Positions 1-9,548 of a stretch of DNA of 10,497 bases are shown here, piece after piece. The notes under the pieces were generated by a model. It did not search any database. It was given only the letters and a program-made list of their open reading frames with translations, and had not been told where the DNA came from. The DNA is from Naegleria gruberi (taxonomy: Eukaryota): the NCBI GenBank assembly GCA_000004985.1, contig GG739015.1; one strand, written 5' to 3'. How positions within the stretch are numbered: the stretch's first letter is position 1; each line of letters begins with the position of its first letter. Position numbers and translations under genes: made by a program.

Positions 1-882
1 ACATTCACATTGATTGGAAGATCGGAGGGTATCATCTTGATCCATCTTTTCAATACCTTCATAATTATTCCTTAATAGAAAGATATTATTTAATTTTCTT
101 GATAATGATGCTTATTACAATTAATATATATATAATGAGAGGCGTAGTAATATATTAGTGTGATGAAGCTAATATATTATATGCGCTTAATAACTTTTGT
201 TTGTTTTTTAAAGTATACTTTATTGAGAAAGTTTAATTGTGTGTTTGGTCCTTTGATTCAGCAAATTGTTCTCTACGGAGCATGAATCCCTTAGTTTTTT
301 TTTGATTTGGTAATGCTAAATGGCGGCAAAAAAAGGCGGGCTAAGGATGGATAAAATTGGATATATGCAAATCCTTAAATGATACTAGTCGAGTTATTAA
401 GGAGAATAAGTTCACCAATATGCGGAATGTTCCAAGTTTGGCATTTCTTGTTGGATTCACCAACATGTCTCCGCCAAGTTGAGGAAGTCTTGGAATGTCA
501 ATAAAACAAAACCTTAGAGTCGCGACTGCTTAACTCACTTTCTTGTTGTTTGACTTGTTGTGATATTCCATTCAATAAACTTTCTTCATTCTGCATTTGG
601 CTTAATATCGATGCATCTTTGCTATGGACAAAAAAGAGTTGACGAATATAGTACTTTCTTCTTTGCAATTATACCTTAATTTAATTGATTGTTATGGGTG
701 ATAGGGATGTTTTGAAAAATAGTGGTAACAATCTAACATTGTGTCATCAATAACAGTTCGGATATCCGAATCATTCATTATTCCGATAATGACAATTCAC
801 ATCACTTCACTCGTCAATCATCACAAAAATTCAGTAAAAAAAAAATCAAACCACTCAATTGCTAGACCGAATCACATCATCA

Positions 883-1094
883 TGGCTTCATCCACCACCA
901 ATGCACAGAGGGGAAAATTCCTTGGACACATTGAAAAGTTTCCATTTTGGGTCTGGGTATTGCTCTTCATCTTTTGTTGTCCATGTGCTTTGGTTTTCTA
1001 TATTCTCCATCGAAGAGAGAAGAGAACCATGCAAGGACAATTACGTTACGATCCGAACAATGTAAAAATTTCCTTCCAAGTTGATAATGTTTAA
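883..1094 (+). CDS. Hypothetical small protein of about 70 aa with one predicted transmembrane helix.
   Basis: An internal ATG at 883 sits in the 741..1094 ORF and gives MASSTTNAQRGKFLGHIEKFPFWVWVLLFIFCCPCALVFYILHRREKRTMQGQLRYDPNNVKISFQVDNV. The hydrophobic stretch is FPFWVWVLLFIFCCPCALVFYIL. The local GC content is clearly higher than the surrounding AT-rich sequence. No recognisable family, so this may be non-coding. Confidence 0.3.
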
Positions 1095-1692: not shown

Positions 1693-4600
1693 NNNNNNNN
1701 NNNNNNNNNNNNNNNNNNNNNNNNNNNNNNNNNNNNNNNNNNNNNNNNNNNNNNNNNNNNNNNNNNNNNNNNNNNNNNNNNNNNNNNNNNNNNNNNNNNN
1801 NNNNNNNNNNNNNNNNNNNNNNNNNNNNNNNNNNNNNNNNNNNNNNNNNNNNNNNNNNNNNNNNNNNNNNNNNNNNNNNNNNNNNNNNNNNNNNNNNNNN
1901 NNNNNNNNNNNNNNNNNNNNNNNNNNNNNNNNNNNNNNNNNNNNNNNNNNNNNNNNNNNNNNNNNNNNNNNNNNNNNNNNNNNNNNNNNNNNNNNNNNNN
2001 NNNNNNNNNNNNNNNNNNNNNNNNNNNNNNNNNNNNNNNNNNNNNNNNNNNNNNNNNNNNNNNNNNNNNNNNNNNNNNNNNNNNNNNNNNNNNNNNNNNN
2101 NNNNNNNNNNNNNNNNNNNNNNNNNNNNNNNNNNNNNNNNNNNNNNNNNNNNNNNNNNNNNNNNNNNNNNNNNNNNNNNNNNNNNNNNNNNNNNNNNNNN
2201 NNNNNNNNNNNNNNNNNNNNNNNNNNNNNNNNNNNNNNNNNNNNNNNNNNNNNNNNNNNNNNNNNNNNNNNNNNNNNNNNNNNNNNNNNNNNNNNNNNNN
2301 NNNNNNNNNNNNNNNNNNNNNNNNNNNNNNNNNNNNNNNNNNNNNNNNNNNNNNNNNNNNNNNNNNNNNNNNNNNNNNNNNNNNNNNNNNNNNNNNNNNN
2401 NNNNNNNNNNNNNNNNNNNNNNNNNNNNNNNNNNNNNNNNNNNNNNNNNNNNNNNNNNNNNNNNNNNNNNNNNNNNNNNNNNNNNNNNNNNNNNNNNNNN
2501 NNNNNNNNNNNNNNNNNNNNNNNNNNNNNNNNNNNNNNNNNNNNNNNNNNNNNNNNNNNNNNNNNNNNNNNNNNNNNNNNNNNNNNNNNNNNNNNNNNNN
2601 NNNNNNNNNNNNNNNNNNNNNNNNNNNNNNNNNNNNNNNNNNNNNNNNNNNNNNNNNNNNNNNNNNNNNNNNNNNNNNNNNNNNNNNNNNNNNNNNNNNN
2701 NNNNNNNNNNNNNNNNNNNNNNNNNNNNNNNNNNNNNNNNNNNNNNNNNNNNNNNNNNNNNNNNNNNNNNNNNNNNNNNNNNNNNNNNNNNNNNNNNNNN
2801 NNNNNNNNNNNNNNNNNNNNNNNNNNNNNNNNNNNNNNNNNNNNNNNNNNNNNNNNNNNNNNNNNNNNNNNNNNNNNNNNNNNNNNNNNNNNNNNNNNNN
2901 NNNNNNNNNNNNNNNNNNNNNNNNNNNNNNNNNNNNNNNNNNNNNNNNNNNNNNNNNNNNNNNNNNNNNNNNNNNNNNNNNNNNNNNNNNNNNNNNNNNN
3001 NNNNNNNNNNNNNNNNNNNNNNNNNNNNNNNNNNNNNNNNNNNNNNNNNNNNNNNNNNNNNNNNNNNNNNNNNNNNNNNNNNNNNNNNNNNNNNNNNNNN
3101 NNNNNNNNNNNNNNNNNNNNNNNNNNNNNNNNNNNNNNNNNNNNNNNNNNNNNNNNNNNNNNNNNNNNNNNNNNNNNNNNNNNNNNNNNNNNNNNNNNNN
3201 NNNNNNNNNNNNNNNNNNNNNNNNNNNNNNNNNNNNNNNNNNNNNNNNNNNNNNNNNNNNNNNNNNNNNNNNNNNNNNNNNNNNNNNNNNNNNNNNNNNN
3301 NNNNNNNNNNNNNNNNNNNNNNNNNNNNNNNNNNNNNNNNNNNNNNNNNNNNNNNNNNNNNNNNNNNNNNNNNNNNNNNNNNNNNNNNNNNNNNNNNNNN
3401 NNNNNNNNNNNNNNNNNNNNNNNNNNNNNNNNNNNNNNNNNNNNNNNNNNNNNNNNNNNNNNNNNNNNNNNNNNNNNNNNNNNNNNNNNNNNNNNNNNNN
3501 NNNNNNNNNNNNNNNNNNNNNNNNNNNNNNNNNNNNNNNNNNNNNNNNNNNNNNNNNNNNNNNNNNNNNNNNNNNNNNNNNNNNNNNNNNNNNNNNNNNN
3601 NNNNNNNNNNNNNNNNNNNNNNNNNNNNNNNNNNNNNNNNNNNNNNNNNNNNNNNNNNNNNNNNNNNNNNNNNNNNNNNNNNNNNNNNNNNNNNNNNNNN
3701 NNNNNNNNNNNNNNNNNNNNNNNNNNNNNNNNNNNNNNNNNNNNNNNNNNNNNNNNNNNNNNNNNNNNNNNNNNNNNNNNNNNNNNNNNNNNNNNNNNNN
3801 NNNNNNNNNNNNNNNNNNNNNNNNNNNNNNNNNNNNNNNNNNNNNNNNNNNNNNNNNNNNNNNNNNNNNNNNNNNNNNNNNNNNNNNNNNNNNNNNNNNN
3901 NNNNNNNNNNNNNNNNNNNNNNNNNNNNNNNNNNNNNNNNNNNNNNNNNNNNNNNNNNNNNNNNNNNNNNNNNNNNNNNNNNNNNNNNNNNNNNNNNNNN
4001 NNNNNNNNNNNNNNNNNNNNNNNNNNNNNNNNNNNNNNNNNNNNNNNNNNNNNNNNNNNNNNNNNNNNNNNNNNNNNNNNNNNNNNNNNNNNNNNNNNNN
4101 NNNNNNNNNNNNNNNNNNNNNNNNNNNNNNNNNNNNNNNNNNNNNNNNNNNNNNNNNNNNNNNNNNNNNNNNNNNNNNNNNNNNNNNNNNNNNNNNNNNN
4201 NNNNNNNNNNNNNNNNNNNNNNNNNNNNNNNNNNNNNNNNNNNNNNNNNNNNNNNNNNNNNNNNNNNNNNNNNNNNNNNNNNNNNNNNNNNNNNNNNNNN
4301 NNNNNNNNNNNNNNNNNNNNNNNNNNNNNNNNNNNNNNNNNNNNNNNNNNNNNNNNNNNNNNNNNNNNNNNNNNNNNNNNNNNNNNNNNNNNNNNNNNNN
4401 NNNNNNNNNNNNNNNNNNNNNNNNNNNNNNNNNNNNNNNNNNNNNNNNNNNNNNNNNNNNNNNNNNNNNNNNNNNNNNNNNNNNNNNNNNNNNNNNNNNN
4501 NNNNNNNNNNNNNNNNNNNNNNNNNNNNNNNNNNNNNNNNNNNNNNNNNNNNNNNNNNNNNNNNNNNNNNNNNNNNNNNNNNNNNNNNNNNNNNNNNNNN

Positions 4601-6434
4601 NNNNNNNNNNNNNNNNNNNNNNNNNNNNNNNNNNNNNNNNNNNNNNNNNNNNNNNNNNNNNNNNNNNNNNNNNNNNNNNNNNNNNNNNNNNNNNNNNNNN
4701 NNNNNNNNNNNNNNNNNNNNNNNNNNNNNNNNNNNNNNNNNNNNNNNNNNNNNNNNNNNNNNNNNNNNNNNNNNNNNNNNNNNNNNNNNNNNNNNNNNNN
4801 NNNNNNNNNNNNNNNNNNNNNNNNNNNNNNNNNNNNNNNNNNNNNNNNNNNNNNNNNNNNNNNNNNNNNNNNNNNNNNNNNNNNNNNNNNNNNNNNNNNN
4901 NNNNNNNNNNNNNNNNNNNNNNNNNNNNNNNNNNNNNNNNNNNNNNNNNNNNNNNNNNNNNNNNNNNNNNNNNNNNNNNNNNNNNNNNNNNNNNNNNNNN
5001 NNNNNNNNNNNNNNNNNNNNNNNNNNNNNNNNNNNNNNNNNNNNNNNNNNNNNNNNNNNNNNNNNNNNNNNNNNNNNNNNNNNNNNNNNNNNNNNNNNNN
5101 NNNNNNNNNNNNNNNNNNNNNNNNNNNNNNNNNNNNNNNNNNNNNNNNNNNNNNNNNNNNNNNNNNNNNNNNNNNNNNNNNNNNNNNNNNNNNNNNNNNN
5201 NNNNNNNNNNNNNNNNNNNNNNNNNNNNNNNNNNNNNNNNNNNNNNNNNNNNNNNNNNNNNNNNNNNNNNNNNNNNNNNNNNNNNNNNNNNNNNNNNNNN
5301 NNNNNNNNNNNNNNNNNNNNNNNNNNNNNNNNNNNNNNNNNNNNNNNNNNNNNNNNNNNNNNNNNNNNNNNNNNNNNNNNNNNNNNNNNNNNNNNNNNNN
5401 NNNNNNNNNNNNNNNNNNNNNNNNNNNNNNNNNNNNNNNNNNNNNNNNNNNNNNNNNNNNNNNNNNNNNNNNNNNNNNNNNNNNNNNNNNNNNNNNNNNN
5501 NNNNNNNNNNNNNNNNNNNNNNNNNNNNNNNNNNNNNNNNNNNNNNNNNNNNNNNNNNNNNNNNNNNNNNNNNNNNNNNNNNNNNNNNNNNNNNNNNNNN
5601 NNNNNNNNNNNNNNNNNNNNNNNNNNNNNNNNNNNNNNNNNNNNNNNNNNNNNNNNNNNNNNNNNNNNNNNNNNNNNNNNNNNNNNNNNNNNNNNNNNNN
5701 NNNNNNNNNNNNNNNNNNNNNNNNNNNNNNNNNNNNNNNNNNNNNNNNNNNNNNNNNNNNNNNNNNNNNNNNNNNNNNNNNNNNNNNNNNNNNNNNNNNN
5801 NNNNNNNNNNNNNNNNNNNNNNNNNNNNNNNNNNNNNNNNNNNNNNNNNNNNNNNNNNNNNNNNNNNNNNNNNNNNNNNNNNNNNNNNNNNNNNNNNNNN
5901 NNNNNNNNNNNNNNNNNNNNNNNNNNNNNNNNNNNNNNNNNNNNNNNNNNNNNNNNNNNNNNNNNNNNNNNNNNNNNNNNNNNNNNNNNNNNNNNNNNNN
6001 NNNNNNNNNNNNNNNNNNNNNNNNNNNNNNNNNNNNNNNNNNNNNNNNNNNNNNNNNNNNNNNNNNNNNNNNNNNNNNNNNNNNNNNNNNNNNNNNNNNN
6101 NNNNNNNNNNNNNNNNNNNNNNNNNNNNNNNNNNNNNNNNNNNNNNNNNNNNNNNNNNNNNNNNNNNNNNNNNNNNNNNNNNNNNNNNNNNNNNNNNNNN
6201 NNNNNNNNNNNNNNNNNNNNNNNNNNNNNNNNNNNNNNNNNNNNNNNNNNNNNNNNNNNNNNNNNNNNNNNNNNNNNNNNNNNNNNNNNNNNNNNNNNNN
6301 NNNNNNNNNNNNNNNNNNNNNNNNNNNNNNNNNNNNNNNNNNNNNNNNNNNNNNNNNNNNNNNNNNNNNNNNNNNNNNNNNNNNNNNNNNNNNNNNNNNN
6401 NNNNNNNNNNNNNNNNNNNNNNNNNNNNNNNNNN
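1693..6434. other. Assembly gap (4,742 N).
   Basis: An uninterrupted run of n from 1693 to 6434. Confidence 1.
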
Positions 6435-6750
6435 GTTTATCTTGTGGAATTTCTTGAATTAATTTCATCATTTCAGAAAAATCATTTTCATTATTAATTA
6501 TATAAATTGTTTTTCTCTTCTCAGAAGATGGAACAATAGCCTTGATCTTGAAAGTGGATAATAACACTTCATCAGAAGAAGTAGCAGATGGCAAATCTTG
6601 AACAAATTCTCTAACAGATTCATTCAAGCCTCCGAAATTAATTAATTGGAAAACCTTTTCAATACTTTCTTCCTTGTTCTTTCTCATGATTAATTTACCA
6701 GTGAGAGTATTATTATTGTTATTATTAGTACACATTTTCTTTCTTATCAA
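6435..6750 (-). CDS. N-terminal part of an unidentified protein, truncated by the assembly gap. It has a poly-Asn tract and a possible ubiquitin-like or beta-grasp type N-terminal region.
   Basis: The minus-strand frame is open from the ATG at 6748..6750 for 105 codons (MIRKKMCTNNNNNNTLTGKLIMRKNKEESIEKVFQLINFGGLNESVREFVQDLPSATSSDEVLLSTFKIKAIVPSSEKRKTIYIINNENDFSEMMKLIQEIPQDK) and continues into the N-run. Its GC content is higher than the flanking DNA. No family can be assigned by eye. Confidence 0.45.
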
Positions 6751-6942: not shown

Positions 6943-7308
6943 CTACCAATACTCACCACAACTACAATTCCCATCTCGTACAATGATGTCACATTCTCTA
7001 ATTTTTGAAATGGCTTTTGCTGCTTGATGGCAATCACCACAAACTCTCAAGTTTGCAGTTATGCAAAGGGTAGATCCTTTTGGTAAAGAAATCAAACCGT
7101 ATGCAATAGCAAGTTTTTCACAATGTTGGAACAGAACTTTTTCTTTTTCCTCTTCAGTGGTGATATCTTTTTTCATGCCCAAACTTGTATCTGGATGGTA
7201 GAGTTTGGATTCCAACAATTCCAACCTTAGCGTATCTAGTTCAGCCCTAATTAGGTTAATCTCTTTATGCTTATCATCCTCACTAACAAATGTAATTACC
7301 CATCTATT
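6943..7308 (-). CDS. PPR gene fragment 3: truncated DYW cytidine-deaminase-like domain.
   Basis: This fragment is in the same frame as fragment 2. It encodes NRWVITFVSEDDKHKEINLIRAELDTLRLELLESKLYHPDT...HCEKLAIAYGLI...NLRVCGDCHQAAKAISKIRECDIIVRDGNCSCGEYW. The HxE lies at about 7117..7125 and the CGDCH at 7027..7041. The stop is TAG at 6943..6945. Confidence 0.8.
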   Translation of the reverse strand, partial: NRWVITFVSEDDKHKEINLIRAELDTLRLELLESKLYHPDTSLGMKKDITTEEEKEKVLFQHCEKLAIAYGLISLPKGSTLCITANLRVCGDCHQAAKAISKIRECDIIVRDGNCSCGEYW

Positions 7309-7761
7309 TCAATTGTGTGTGTGTAAATAAATATTCGACATTAATATGTAAGCTGCAGCATTGGAAGGGCTTTGGGATATCACTCTTTCGAATGCCACTT
7401 CACCAAACTCAATATTGTTATATTTTCTACTAGCTCCCAACAAGGTCATCCAAATTATGGTGTCTGTTTCGTCTGAATCAATAAAGAAATGCGCCTCCTC
7501 TAAAAAACCTGCTCTTCCCAACATGTCTATGATGCAAGTTTTGTGTTTAATGTCTGGTTCAATATCATGATTAGTTTGCATACTTTCATAGATTTGAAAT
7601 CCTTCCTTAATTAATCCACTATGACTACACGCATTCAAAACTGCTGACACAACAAATGTGGTATCATTAGGAGCTATCCTCATTTCTTTGAATATCCTAA
7701 TCGCTTCTGGGAAGTCTTCATGAGTGATATAAATATTCGAGAGTTTGGTGGAATTCGATTA
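7309..7761 (-). CDS. PPR gene fragment 2: last PPR motifs plus the E-type motif, ending LMSNIY (frame B).
   Basis: Frame B is open from 7761 down to TGA at 7309..7311. It encodes ...EAIRIFKEMRIAPNDTTFVVSAVLNACSHSGLIKEGFQIYESM...IDMLGRAGFLEEA...ILMSNIYLHTHN. This is the canonical layout of the last PPR and E motifs of plant PLS proteins. Confidence 0.75.
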
Positions 7762-8681
7762 CTTTTCATCAACTCTAAAACATTCAAAGCTTGAGTGAAA
7801 TTCGAACTGTTAATACATCCCTTGATTAGTGCATGATAGTGAGATGGCAAAATTACTCTAGTTTTGGATGTGAGTATTTGCAGAGCATTTTGGTATTTTC
7901 CAAGACTCGAAAGGGCTAGAATAACATAGCTAAAAGTTTGCTTGTCCGTCTCAATTGAAGATTCCATCTCGCTGAATAACAGTAGTACTTCATTGTAAAG
8001 AGAGTGATGTGCGTATGCGGAAAGCATTGCATTCCATGTTGCTGTTGGTTTCTTCTCCATGCTGTGAANCAGTTCAATAGACCTTTCTAATAACCCACAC
8101 TTGGAGAACATAGAAATGAGGCTTGTTTGGACAATTATATCATTGAAAAATCCACTATTAATAATTAATTCTTCCAGGTTTAAAGCAGATGCTTTTGTGG
8201 TGCATCCAGTACTAATATTACCTCTCATTTCTGATACTGCAATTAACGCTTTTTGAATTTGTTTAGTATTAACTAAAGCTTTGATGTAGCAGGAATAATG
8301 AAACTTGTCAGGTGCCCCAATGTTTCGAAATATTAACTCTGCCTCGAATTGCTTCCACAAGTCCCTTTTCCTTTGCATATCTATTGGTTTTTTAAGGAAC
8401 GTTGTTATAAGATATAAATTTGGTTTATCAATAGCTTTGAATATTTTATCACACTCCTCCACAGAAAACTTTTCTCCCGAAATCAAGAAGGCACCATCAT
8501 AGGAATTAGGGTTTACATAGAATTTCGATAAGGCTTGTTGTTTTCTTGGAAAAGGCTTTTCACGAGGCTGGTTGTAATTTTTTTCATTTTTAAAAAATAG
8601 GAAATTGGTAAGGCCTTTATATATGAGCCAATAAATACTGGCAAGAAATTCCTTACATGCTTTCATTCTTGTTGTTTTCAC
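7680..8681 (-). CDS. PPR gene fragment 1: N-terminal region and degenerate PLS-type PPR repeats (frame A).
   Basis: A 333-aa ORF with repeated PPR-like helices, for example VQTSLISMFSKCGLLERSIEL and TWNAMLSAYAHHSLYNEVLLLFSEME. It contains one X from the n at 8069. Confidence 0.75.
   Translation of the reverse strand: MKTTRMKACKEFLASIYWLIYKGLTNFLFFKNEKNYNQPREKPFPRKQQALSKFYVNPNSYDGAFLISGEKFSVEECDKIFKAIDKPNLYLITTFLKKPIDMQRKRDLWKQFEAELIFRNIGAPDKFHYSCYIKALVNTKQIQKALIAVSEMRGNISTGCTTKASALNLEELIINSGFFNDIIVQTSLISMFSKCGLLERSIELXHSMEKKPTATWNAMLSAYAHHSLYNEVLLLFSEMESSIETDKQTFSYVILALSSLGKYQNALQILTSKTRVILPSHYHALIKGCINSSNFTQALNVLELMKSNRIPPNSRIFISLMKTSQKRLGYSKK
8069..8069. other. Single ambiguous base inside the PPR coding sequence.
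   Basis: An n at 8069, giving an X in the 7680..8681 ORF translation. Confidence 1.
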
Positions 8682-8849: not shown

Positions 8850-9115
8850 TTGATTTTCGTTAATAATTAACAAAAAAAACGAAATAAAAACGTAAACGTT
8901 TGTTGGGAAAAAAATTTCAAATTTACAGGTAAATTAACGCTAAATTTTATCGTAAATTATTGACGATTTTTCAATAATGTTTAACATTAAATATTATTGA
9001 AAAATTGTTATCAAAAAACGTTAATCATTAGCGAAAAATCGTCAATATTTCACAATAAAATTTGACTCATAATTGTCATCAATCATTAACGAAAAACTGT
9101 TAATGATTTACACAC
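8850..9115. repeat. Palindrome and inverted-repeat cluster. It may be a MITE-like element or a structured regulatory module.
   Basis: Near-palindrome gttaataattaac at 8860..8872. A 14-bp inverted repeat attgacgatttttc (8959..8972) pairs with gaaaaatcgtcaat (9033..9046), with a 60-bp spacer. A direct repeat aatcattagcgaaaaa (9023..9038) matches aatcattaacgaaaaa (9081..9096). A perfect hairpin lies at 9081..9108. Confidence 0.5.
9081..9108. repeat. Perfect 10-bp stem / 8-nt loop hairpin palindrome.
   Basis: aatcattaac (9081..9090), then gaaaaact (9091..9098), then gttaatgatt (9099..9108). The two arms are exact reverse complements. Confidence 0.9.
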
Positions 9116-9498: not shown

Positions 9499-9548
9499 NN
9501 NNNNNNNNNNNNNNNNNNNNNNNNNNNNNNNNNNNNNNNNNNNNNNNN
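9499..9548. other. Assembly gap (50 N), probably a placeholder of unknown size.
   Basis: A run of exactly 50 n. Confidence 1.

Follow-up and report, generated by a model that had tools for sequence, protein, structure and literature searches.

DYW-type PPR editing factors are rare and patchily distributed outside land plants, and horizontal transfer is thought to have spread them. In the Heterolobosea, 11 DYW-PPR genes have been described in Naegleria gruberi and 12 in Acrasis kona, with two verified mitochondrial C-to-U sites in each species, which implies that spare paralogues exist (Fu et al. 2014, PMC4202320). Lineage-specific expansions of this gene family in heteroloboseans were noted again in a 2026 preprint. 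Among plant factors, OTP86 binds its second structural zinc through H924, H947, C954 and C956, and the Lys residue just before the PG box matters for editing (Takenaka et al. 2021, PMC7611903). Two further reports describe plant editing factors that degenerated or became truncated once their target had been lost (PMC3441922, PMC6424221).

The locus described here lies on the minus strand (8681..6943) of a 10,497-nt stretch of DNA, hereafter the window. Its gene has the PLS array, E and DYW architecture of two relatives, the 860-residue N. gruberi protein P0072 and P0003, a protein from a metagenomic contig (JGI sample 3300057138). The three genes also have in common an N-terminal [E/K][Y/F][F/Y][K/V]NPNx[F/Y]..FL motif, and the coding sequence of the window gene resembles that of P0003 in its AT-rich composition. 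A complete E_motif, an Eplus_motif and an entire DYW domain (152-155 bits) are found in the Naegleria-type relatives, in contrast with the window gene, which lacks these and whose frame is broken. Its array covers ~550 codons, against 779-860 in those relatives. The DYW-PPR genes of Acrasis kona are likewise non-plant, lineage-specifically expanded and heterolobosean, and they outnumber their known targets. However, in all 12 Acrasis ORFs the E/E+/DYW domain is reported to be recognisable and the PG box to be conserved (PMC4202320), whereas the window gene, as compared with that published description, has lost most of the PG box.

Plant DYW structures (OTP86, 7o4e/7o4f; DYW1, 7w86; a synthetic PPR-DYW protein, 9kfx) can be aligned with the window over HxE, CxxCH, CxC, the gating-domain region and a near-canonical C terminus. 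Relative to OTP86, the window lacks the equivalent of K823 and most of the PG box (residues 1-14 of the 7o4e chain are unmatched), together with the Zn2 ligand H947. The C-terminal degeneration or probable pseudogenisation of a PLS-class factor at this locus has parallels in CRR4, CRR21 and CLB19 (PMC3441922) and in DOT4 (PMC6424221).

A PLS-class PPR-DYW gene and its relatives

The PLS-class PPR array, E motif and DYW deaminase domain were identified by a Pfam profile search of the translations (Table 1). ORF A (8681..7680, minus strand, 333 aa) matched PPR_2 (1.6e-19), PPR (1.5e-18) and PPR_3 (2.3e-08) over residues 186-323. The second frame (7737..7312, minus strand) matched PPR (6.6e-10) and positions 1-32 of the 63-position E_motif profile, and the segment 7308..6946 of the same strand matched DYW_deaminase (7.2e-26). 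The profile models thereby recognised tandem PPR motifs, the mark of PLS-class PPR proteins of the E/DYW subgroup. In the alignments, both L2 (LNACSHSG) and S2 (DMLGRAG) of the terminal triplet are retained, and the PPR repeats outside the lesions described below keep the family register. The single n, at 8069, stands for no more than an ambiguous base. The spacing from KCG to W across it, counted manually on the alignments, is 23 residues, the same as in the family consensus.

Table 1. Features of the PPR-DYW locus in the window
Feature	Position	Strand	Remarks
Candidate start, frame A: ATG at 8666 (MKACKEF...)	8646..8666	-	48 codons upstream of conserved N-terminal motif; start putative
N-terminal motif FYVNPNSYDGAFLI	8481..8522	-	Common to N. 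gruberi P0072 (EYFKNPNDFDAVFLL) and metagenomic P0003 (EYFKNPNPFAASFLI)
Intact frame A repeats overall	7740..8132	-	Pfam PPR, PPR_2, PPR_3
S-type repeat (KCG)	8046..8132	-	Frame A; holds n at 8069
P-type repeat (TATWNAML)	7941..8045	-	Frame A
L-type repeat	7842..7940	-	Frame A
S-type repeat	7740..7841	-	Frame A
Broken P2 repeat	7663..7739	-	Helices in different frames; ~9 residues short of usual 35
P2 helix A, RIFISLMKT	7713..7739	-	Frame A
P2 helix B and loop, EAIRIFKEMRIAPND	7663..7707	-	Frame B
L2 (TTF..LNACSHSG), S2 (..DMLGRAG..), E1, first E2 helix (AAYILMSNIY)	7327..7662	-	Frame B; Pfam PPR and E_motif 1-32/34 of 63
Junction filler LHTHN*NR	7303..7326	-	(AC)5 run 7315..7324 and in-frame TGA 7309..7311
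DYW deaminase domain remnant	6946..7302	-	Pfam; matches PDB 9kfx, 7w86, 7o4e
PG box tail (WVITF) and gating-domain region kept in DYW remnant	within 6946..7302	-	
HCE	7117..7125	-	Catalytic HxE
CGDCH	7027..7041	-	Catalytic CxxCH
27-nt in-frame deletion junction VRD|GN	6967..6978	-	xxRFHHFKx removed
CSC	6958..6966	-	DYW domain
Terminal EYW	6946..6954	-	DYW-like tripeptide
TAG stop after ...CSCGEYW	6943..6945	-	

A word-indexed protein search returned 178 homologues, with best identities of 30-38%. The first-pass annotation, made from the sequence alone, had proposed the DYW-type PLS PPR family together with a Pfam check, and the PPR, PPR_2 and DYW_deaminase models all hit. At the level of sequence comparison, the assignment to PLS-class PPR proteins with a DYW deaminase is fully supported by Pfam, the 178 homologues and the matches to solved structures. 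What that annotation missed is that the gene, by its similarities, is a member of the Naegleria-like, non-plant DYW-PPR family. The closest sequences in the alignments were P0003 (40-50% identity), P0075 (45-47%) and N. gruberi P0072. Besides the window, a regular-expression search of the 287 retrieved proteins found the N-terminal YFKNPNxFDAxFL-type motif in P0072 and P0003 only, and from these three sequences we infer that it defines a Naegleria-type clade. The same three sequences were grouped in 68 of 100 bootstraps by neighbor-joining on the C-terminal region (270 columns, in a sample that did not include rotifer, Acrasis and Physarum sequences).

At identities of only 38-50%, none of the retrieved proteins is orthologous to the window gene. 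An exhaustive phmmer search with 284 aa yielded no orthologue among 10,403 hits, none of which exceeded 33% identity and most of which were long PPR arrays, and none of the 89 pattern matches from a metagenome scan was confirmed as one. No close match was found in ~15 billion public proteins, and the N-terminal 158 aa had no match. Public assemblies yielded no exact copy of the 124-aa or the 93-aa ORF, and no independent assembly of the locus came to light.

Lesions in the P2 repeat, the E2-PG region and the DYW domain

A change of frame interrupts the array in its P2 repeat. In tblastn comparisons with four relatives, the homologous segments run in frame -2 as far as 7719, and in frame -1 they extend from 7734 to 6946; frames A and B are both open over 7683..7758. 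The frameshift that had been placed near 7717..7746 falls inside this zone, but its attribution to a single 1-bp indel does not agree with the spacing of conserved residues. From the P2 Trp to the L2 ACSH there are 41 residues in 77 of 79 homologues and 42 in the other two. Here, the equivalent Phe (7733) precedes the Ala (7632) by 101 nt (33.7 codons), which amounts to a net shortfall of 22 nt. Some 19 of these nucleotides are missing between F (7733) and EA (7707), that is, between helix A (RIFISLMKT) and helix B (EAIRIF), and P2 is ~9 residues short for any placement of the frame switch. The P2-L2-S2 triplet thus departs from the family-constant spacing as well as changing frame, and the path from the PPR array to the deaminase is interrupted twice, by the frame change at 7707..7733 and by the TGA at 7309..7311.

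Two other candidate lesions were discarded. An 84-column "insertion" in the MAFFT alignment, considered as a tandem duplication, is the normal P1-L1-S1 triplet that precedes P2-L2-S2. At the N terminus, MKKITTSLVKSLF is encoded in another frame (ATG at ~8586) and resembles the N. gruberi presequence. A third lesion at that place is unnecessary because the frame A ATG at 8666, 48 codons before the N-terminal motif, matches the open upstream length of P0003, in which ~48 open in-frame codons likewise precede the same motif.

MAFFT alignment of the C termini revealed two further losses. A 26-residue segment with the consensus VAxVRxxMKxxGxKKxPGCSWIEVxG, present in 98 of 99 DYW homologues, is absent here. 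Its 78 nt code for helix B of E2, the Lys that precedes the PG box and the greater part of that box. In its place the window reads LHTHN*NR, encoded by ttacacacacacaattgaaataga, which carries an (AC)5 run and the TGA. The TGA, which is in frame with the DYW part, is therefore located in non-homologous filler at a deletion junction and not in conserved coding sequence. Farther downstream, xxRFHHFKx (9 residues, 27 nt), again found in all but one of the 99 homologues, is missing at VRD|GN. The same two gaps appeared against solved structures: residues 456-485 of 9kfx are unmatched, as is rfhhf in 9kfx, DYW1 (7w86) and OTP86 (7o4e). It had been suggested that the DYW domain was cut off from the repeats only by the TGA; the stop is real and in frame, but "only" is mistaken given the absence of 26 and 9 residues.

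Conceptual repair of the C terminus gave a Pfam E_motif match to positions 1-34 of 63 at 26.0 bits and a DYW score of 88.9 bits. The E_motif scores of the window (26.0-26.4 bits) fall below the Pfam cut-off of 27.3 bits. Among the relatives, which score 70-104 bits for positions 1-63 of E_motif, P0075 and P0072 match E_motif 1-63 and Eplus_motif 1-28 of 28 and have DYW scores of 151.7 and 154.8 bits, respectively. The E motif (E1 plus E2, 63 positions) is thus incomplete in the window. Pfam found no Eplus_motif match in the window translations or the repaired C terminus, and of the PG box (PGxSWIEVxGxxHxF) the WVITF tail alone is present.

The catalytic zinc signature HxE(x)nCxxC is preserved, as HCE and CGDCH align to HSE and CxDCH of 9kfx, 7w86 and 7o4e. 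The middle residue of HCE is changed from Ser to Cys, at a column at least 90% conserved. The second structural zinc site is incomplete: it retains counterparts of H924, C954 and C956, and that of H947, which in the numbering of the 7o4e alignment is the first His of the RFHHF block, is deleted. The protein ends with a DYW-like tripeptide, in CSCGEYW followed by TAG. Variant C-terminal tripeptides also occur in accepted members of the family, DSW in OTP86 and DNW in N. gruberi P0072.

Probable pseudogenisation and alternative readings

We consider that the locus is probably a genuine, fairly recent pseudogene of a Naegleria-type PLS-class PPR-DYW editing factor. Whole pieces of the protein are missing, which makes a real pseudogene more likely than a sequencing slip. 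Judging from its family, the ancestral gene would have encoded a mitochondrial, site-specific C-to-U RNA-editing factor, whose PPR array would have bound the RNA immediately upstream of the cytidine to be deaminated by its zinc-dependent DYW domain. Since then the copy has lost ~19-22 nt in the P2 repeat, with a frameshift as the consequence; 78 nt that covered helix B of E2 and the greater part of the PG box, where the (AC)5 filler with its TGA now stands; and 27 nt of the DYW domain, among them the codon for a ligand of the second zinc. As the sequence reads, a full-length protein can no longer be made from the present copy, and even after conceptual repair the product would be without parts that 98 of the 99 relatives keep. 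Both the 78- and the 27-nt deletions are multiples of 3, as would be expected if selection persisted for a time after them; chance alone would produce this in ~1 in 9 cases.

Redundancy among the paralogues of a lineage-specifically expanded family may have led to inactivation, as may an organellar C-to-T change that abolished the edited site. The latter route has precedents in plants (PMC3441922, PMC6424221), although, in contrast with those cases, a link between the window gene and a lost editing site would be purely inferred.

The decay does not extend to most conserved residues. At columns at least 90% conserved among 99 homologues, 40 of 46 aligned residues (87%) are kept. By this measure the window ranks fifth lowest of 100 sequences, yet above N. 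gruberi P0072, and is within the range of intact homologues. On these alignments point-substitution decay is modest, and because conserved residues are mostly retained the decay looks recent, in agreement with the recency that the first-pass annotation had suspected. Modest decay fits recent inactivation but also leaves room for an artefact, and substitutions were not decisive as independent proof of pseudogene status.

The gapped draft assembly, the modest substitution decay, the in-frame lengths of the two larger deletions and the existence of frame-restoring GT..AG pairs count against a pseudogene, and each finds its place in another reading. The organism's gene could be intact, with lesions that arose from low coverage, gap closing or local mis-joins in the assembly. 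The draft was correctly described as gapped, with runs of N at 1693..6434 (4742 N) and 9499..9548 (50 N) and the single n at 8069 inside the gene, and both the conserved residues outside the lesions, kept at approximately the level of intact homologues, and the intact catalytic HxE and CxxCH also speak for an artefact. However, three separate multi-base losses within ~800 nt, with microsatellite filler, are untypical of base-call or homopolymer errors, and the repeat register is exact elsewhere in the gene, even across the n at 8069, which argues that the sequence is not generally garbled. We therefore regard an artefact as unlikely. The first-pass annotation had offered pseudogenisation and sequencing error as alternatives; of the two, pseudogenisation fits better, and base-call error fits losses of ~19-22, 78 and 27 nt worse. 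Given the multi-base losses and the stop-carrying filler, a protein typical of the family would not be regained by mending a single base and a single codon.

Alternatively, the gene might be degenerate but still in use, in one of three forms that together have a low probability. The 78- and 27-nt deletions might be real and tolerated, with only the frameshift or the TGA an error, in a non-catalytic specificity factor like those of the plant E+ class. Two mini-introns, 7762..7716 (47 nt) and 7339..7304 (36 nt), might be spliced to give one ORF. Lastly, the 333-aa 5' ORF might be expressed alone as a truncated PPR protein. The modest substitution decay and the preservation of frame by both large deletions are consistent with continued use, and plant E+ proteins with a truncated DYW domain do work with trans-acting DYW proteins (PMC7611903). 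There are also GT..AG pairs of the right phase at both lesions: upstream of the frame switch the only GT is at 7762, and the pair 7339..7304 spans the TGA, its removal giving ...AAAYILIWVITFVSEDD.... However, the 47-nt "intron" would excise what looks in frame A like a canonical PPR loop plus helix A, a region covered by the PPR_3 alignment to residue 323 and by the P0003 tblastn segment to 7719, and would leave L2 without the P2 repeat that precedes it, at a fixed distance, in 77 of 79 homologues. Similarly, the 36-nt "intron" would excise the conserved SNIY of E2, and in both cases the PG box and the RFHHF segment would stay lost. A GTAATC 5' site and lengths of 36-47 nt are not known to be typical of Naegleria introns. 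We thus rejected rescue by introns, which restores the frame on paper only, removes conserved PPR and E2 sequence and does not regain the missing segments.

Were the sequence both correct and expressed, through read-through, the two mini-introns or separate products, it would specify a naturally minimised DYW protein lacking the beginning of the PG box and one of the residues that bind the second zinc. We find this improbable. The DYW domain of such a protein would be structurally new, and the protein might serve as a non-catalytic specificity factor dependent on a partner deaminase, like plant E+ proteins.

Recoding, with TGA as a sense codon in a variant nuclear code plus a programmed frameshift, was considered only because one gene contains both a TGA and a frame change, has no specific support and is extremely improbable: the TGA lies in non-homologous filler at a deletion junction, for which reason its reading as a sense codon was rejected, any amino acid at that position fails to restore the family architecture, no slippery-site logic or conservation could be shown, and ORF 741..1094 and the PPR gene end in standard stops (TAA and TAG, respectively).

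The best-supported overall reading of the sequence is an ordinary recent pseudogene of an already known non-plant DYW-PPR family, of which the decayed member itself is new. Its significance is small. One more Naegleria-like member adds one data point on the distribution of DYW-PPR genes outside land plants, and a decaying copy would illustrate turnover in lineage-specific expansions in which genes far outnumber the editing sites known so far. Annotators should mark the locus as a probable pseudogene rather than correct it to an intact editing factor.

Surroundings of the locus

Eight flanking ORF fragments gave nothing meaningful in Pfam, searches with the fragment of the neighboring gene found no matches, and tRNA and Rfam searches gave no hits. 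The locus is richer in GC (35%) than its flanks (25-27%); the P0003 gene has a GC content of 32%.

Frame-preserving deletions and intron-like pairs in the PPR gene

Relative to the family, the DYW-type PPR gene, which we favor as a recent pseudogene, carries deletions of 78 and 27 nt, both of which keep the reading frame. By chance alone, two deletions would both be in frame in approximately 1 of 9 cases, but the kept frame could also point to selection that still acted on the gene after these events.

Two GT..AG pairs were found at the frame lesions. An automatic gene predictor could call them as introns and thereby annotate the PPR gene as intact; homology speaks against both as introns.

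Features of the window and the metagenomic locus
Feature	Position	Strand	Description
Inverted repeat	8938..9063		AT-rich, nested, strong; in the 5' flank, ~270-400 nt ahead of the candidate start codon (ATG at 8666)
Third-frame peptide MKKITTSLVKSLFQENNK...	8535..8586	minus	ATG-initiated; similar to P0072 presequence
GT..AG pair, 47 nt	7716..7762	minus	phase exactly right for joining frame A (N-terminal repeats) to frame B (later repeats and E motif)
GT..AG pair, 36 nt	7304..7339	minus	phase exactly right for removing the TGA
78-nt deletion	7303..7326		frame kept
27-nt deletion	6967..6978		frame kept
Neighboring gene MCTNNNNNNTLTGKLIMRKNKEES...	6435..6735	minus	same strand as PPR gene
Scaffold gap	1693..6434		4742 N
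Small ORF MASSTTNAQRGKFLGHIEKFPFWVWVLLFIFCCPCALVFYILHRREKR..., 70 aa	882..1094	plus	one hydrophobic, Cys-rich stretch
P0003, 779 aa (locus L001)	197..2536 of contig Ga0506606_004408		JGI metagenome 3300057138

N-terminal region and 5' flank

The third-frame peptide, whose ATG is preceded by tatataaagg, resembles the presequence (..ATSLKKLGKVKDLF..) of P0072, another N. gruberi DYW-type PPR protein. It is not in frame with the PPR ORF, and it is not needed because frame A has its own ATG. The peptide may be the vestige of another 1-nt indel, or a coincidence. The closest full-length relative is P0003, encoded on a metagenomic contig with 32% GC. No stop codon interrupts its frame over the approximately 48 codons that precede the called start (MNTKCFFHVSFSLSRRYLL...), and the protein as called therefore probably lacks its presequence.

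The arms of the inverted repeat, 47 nt in length, are 85% complementary. Its folding energy as single-stranded DNA is -28 kcal/mol, compared with -12.5 +/- 2.7 for shuffled sequences (z = -5.9). Possible explanations are a MITE-like insertion and a hairpin belonging to the 5' flank of the PPR gene; a connection with the inactivation of that gene would be speculative.

Neighboring open reading frames

Approximately 200 nt past the stop codon of the PPR gene, the neighboring gene begins, which the scaffold gap truncates; its product contains a poly-Asn run. Neither a protein database search nor a Pfam search with this fragment returned any match. Similarly, a Pfam search with the 70-aa ORF gave no significant match; its hydrophobic stretch looks like a transmembrane segment.
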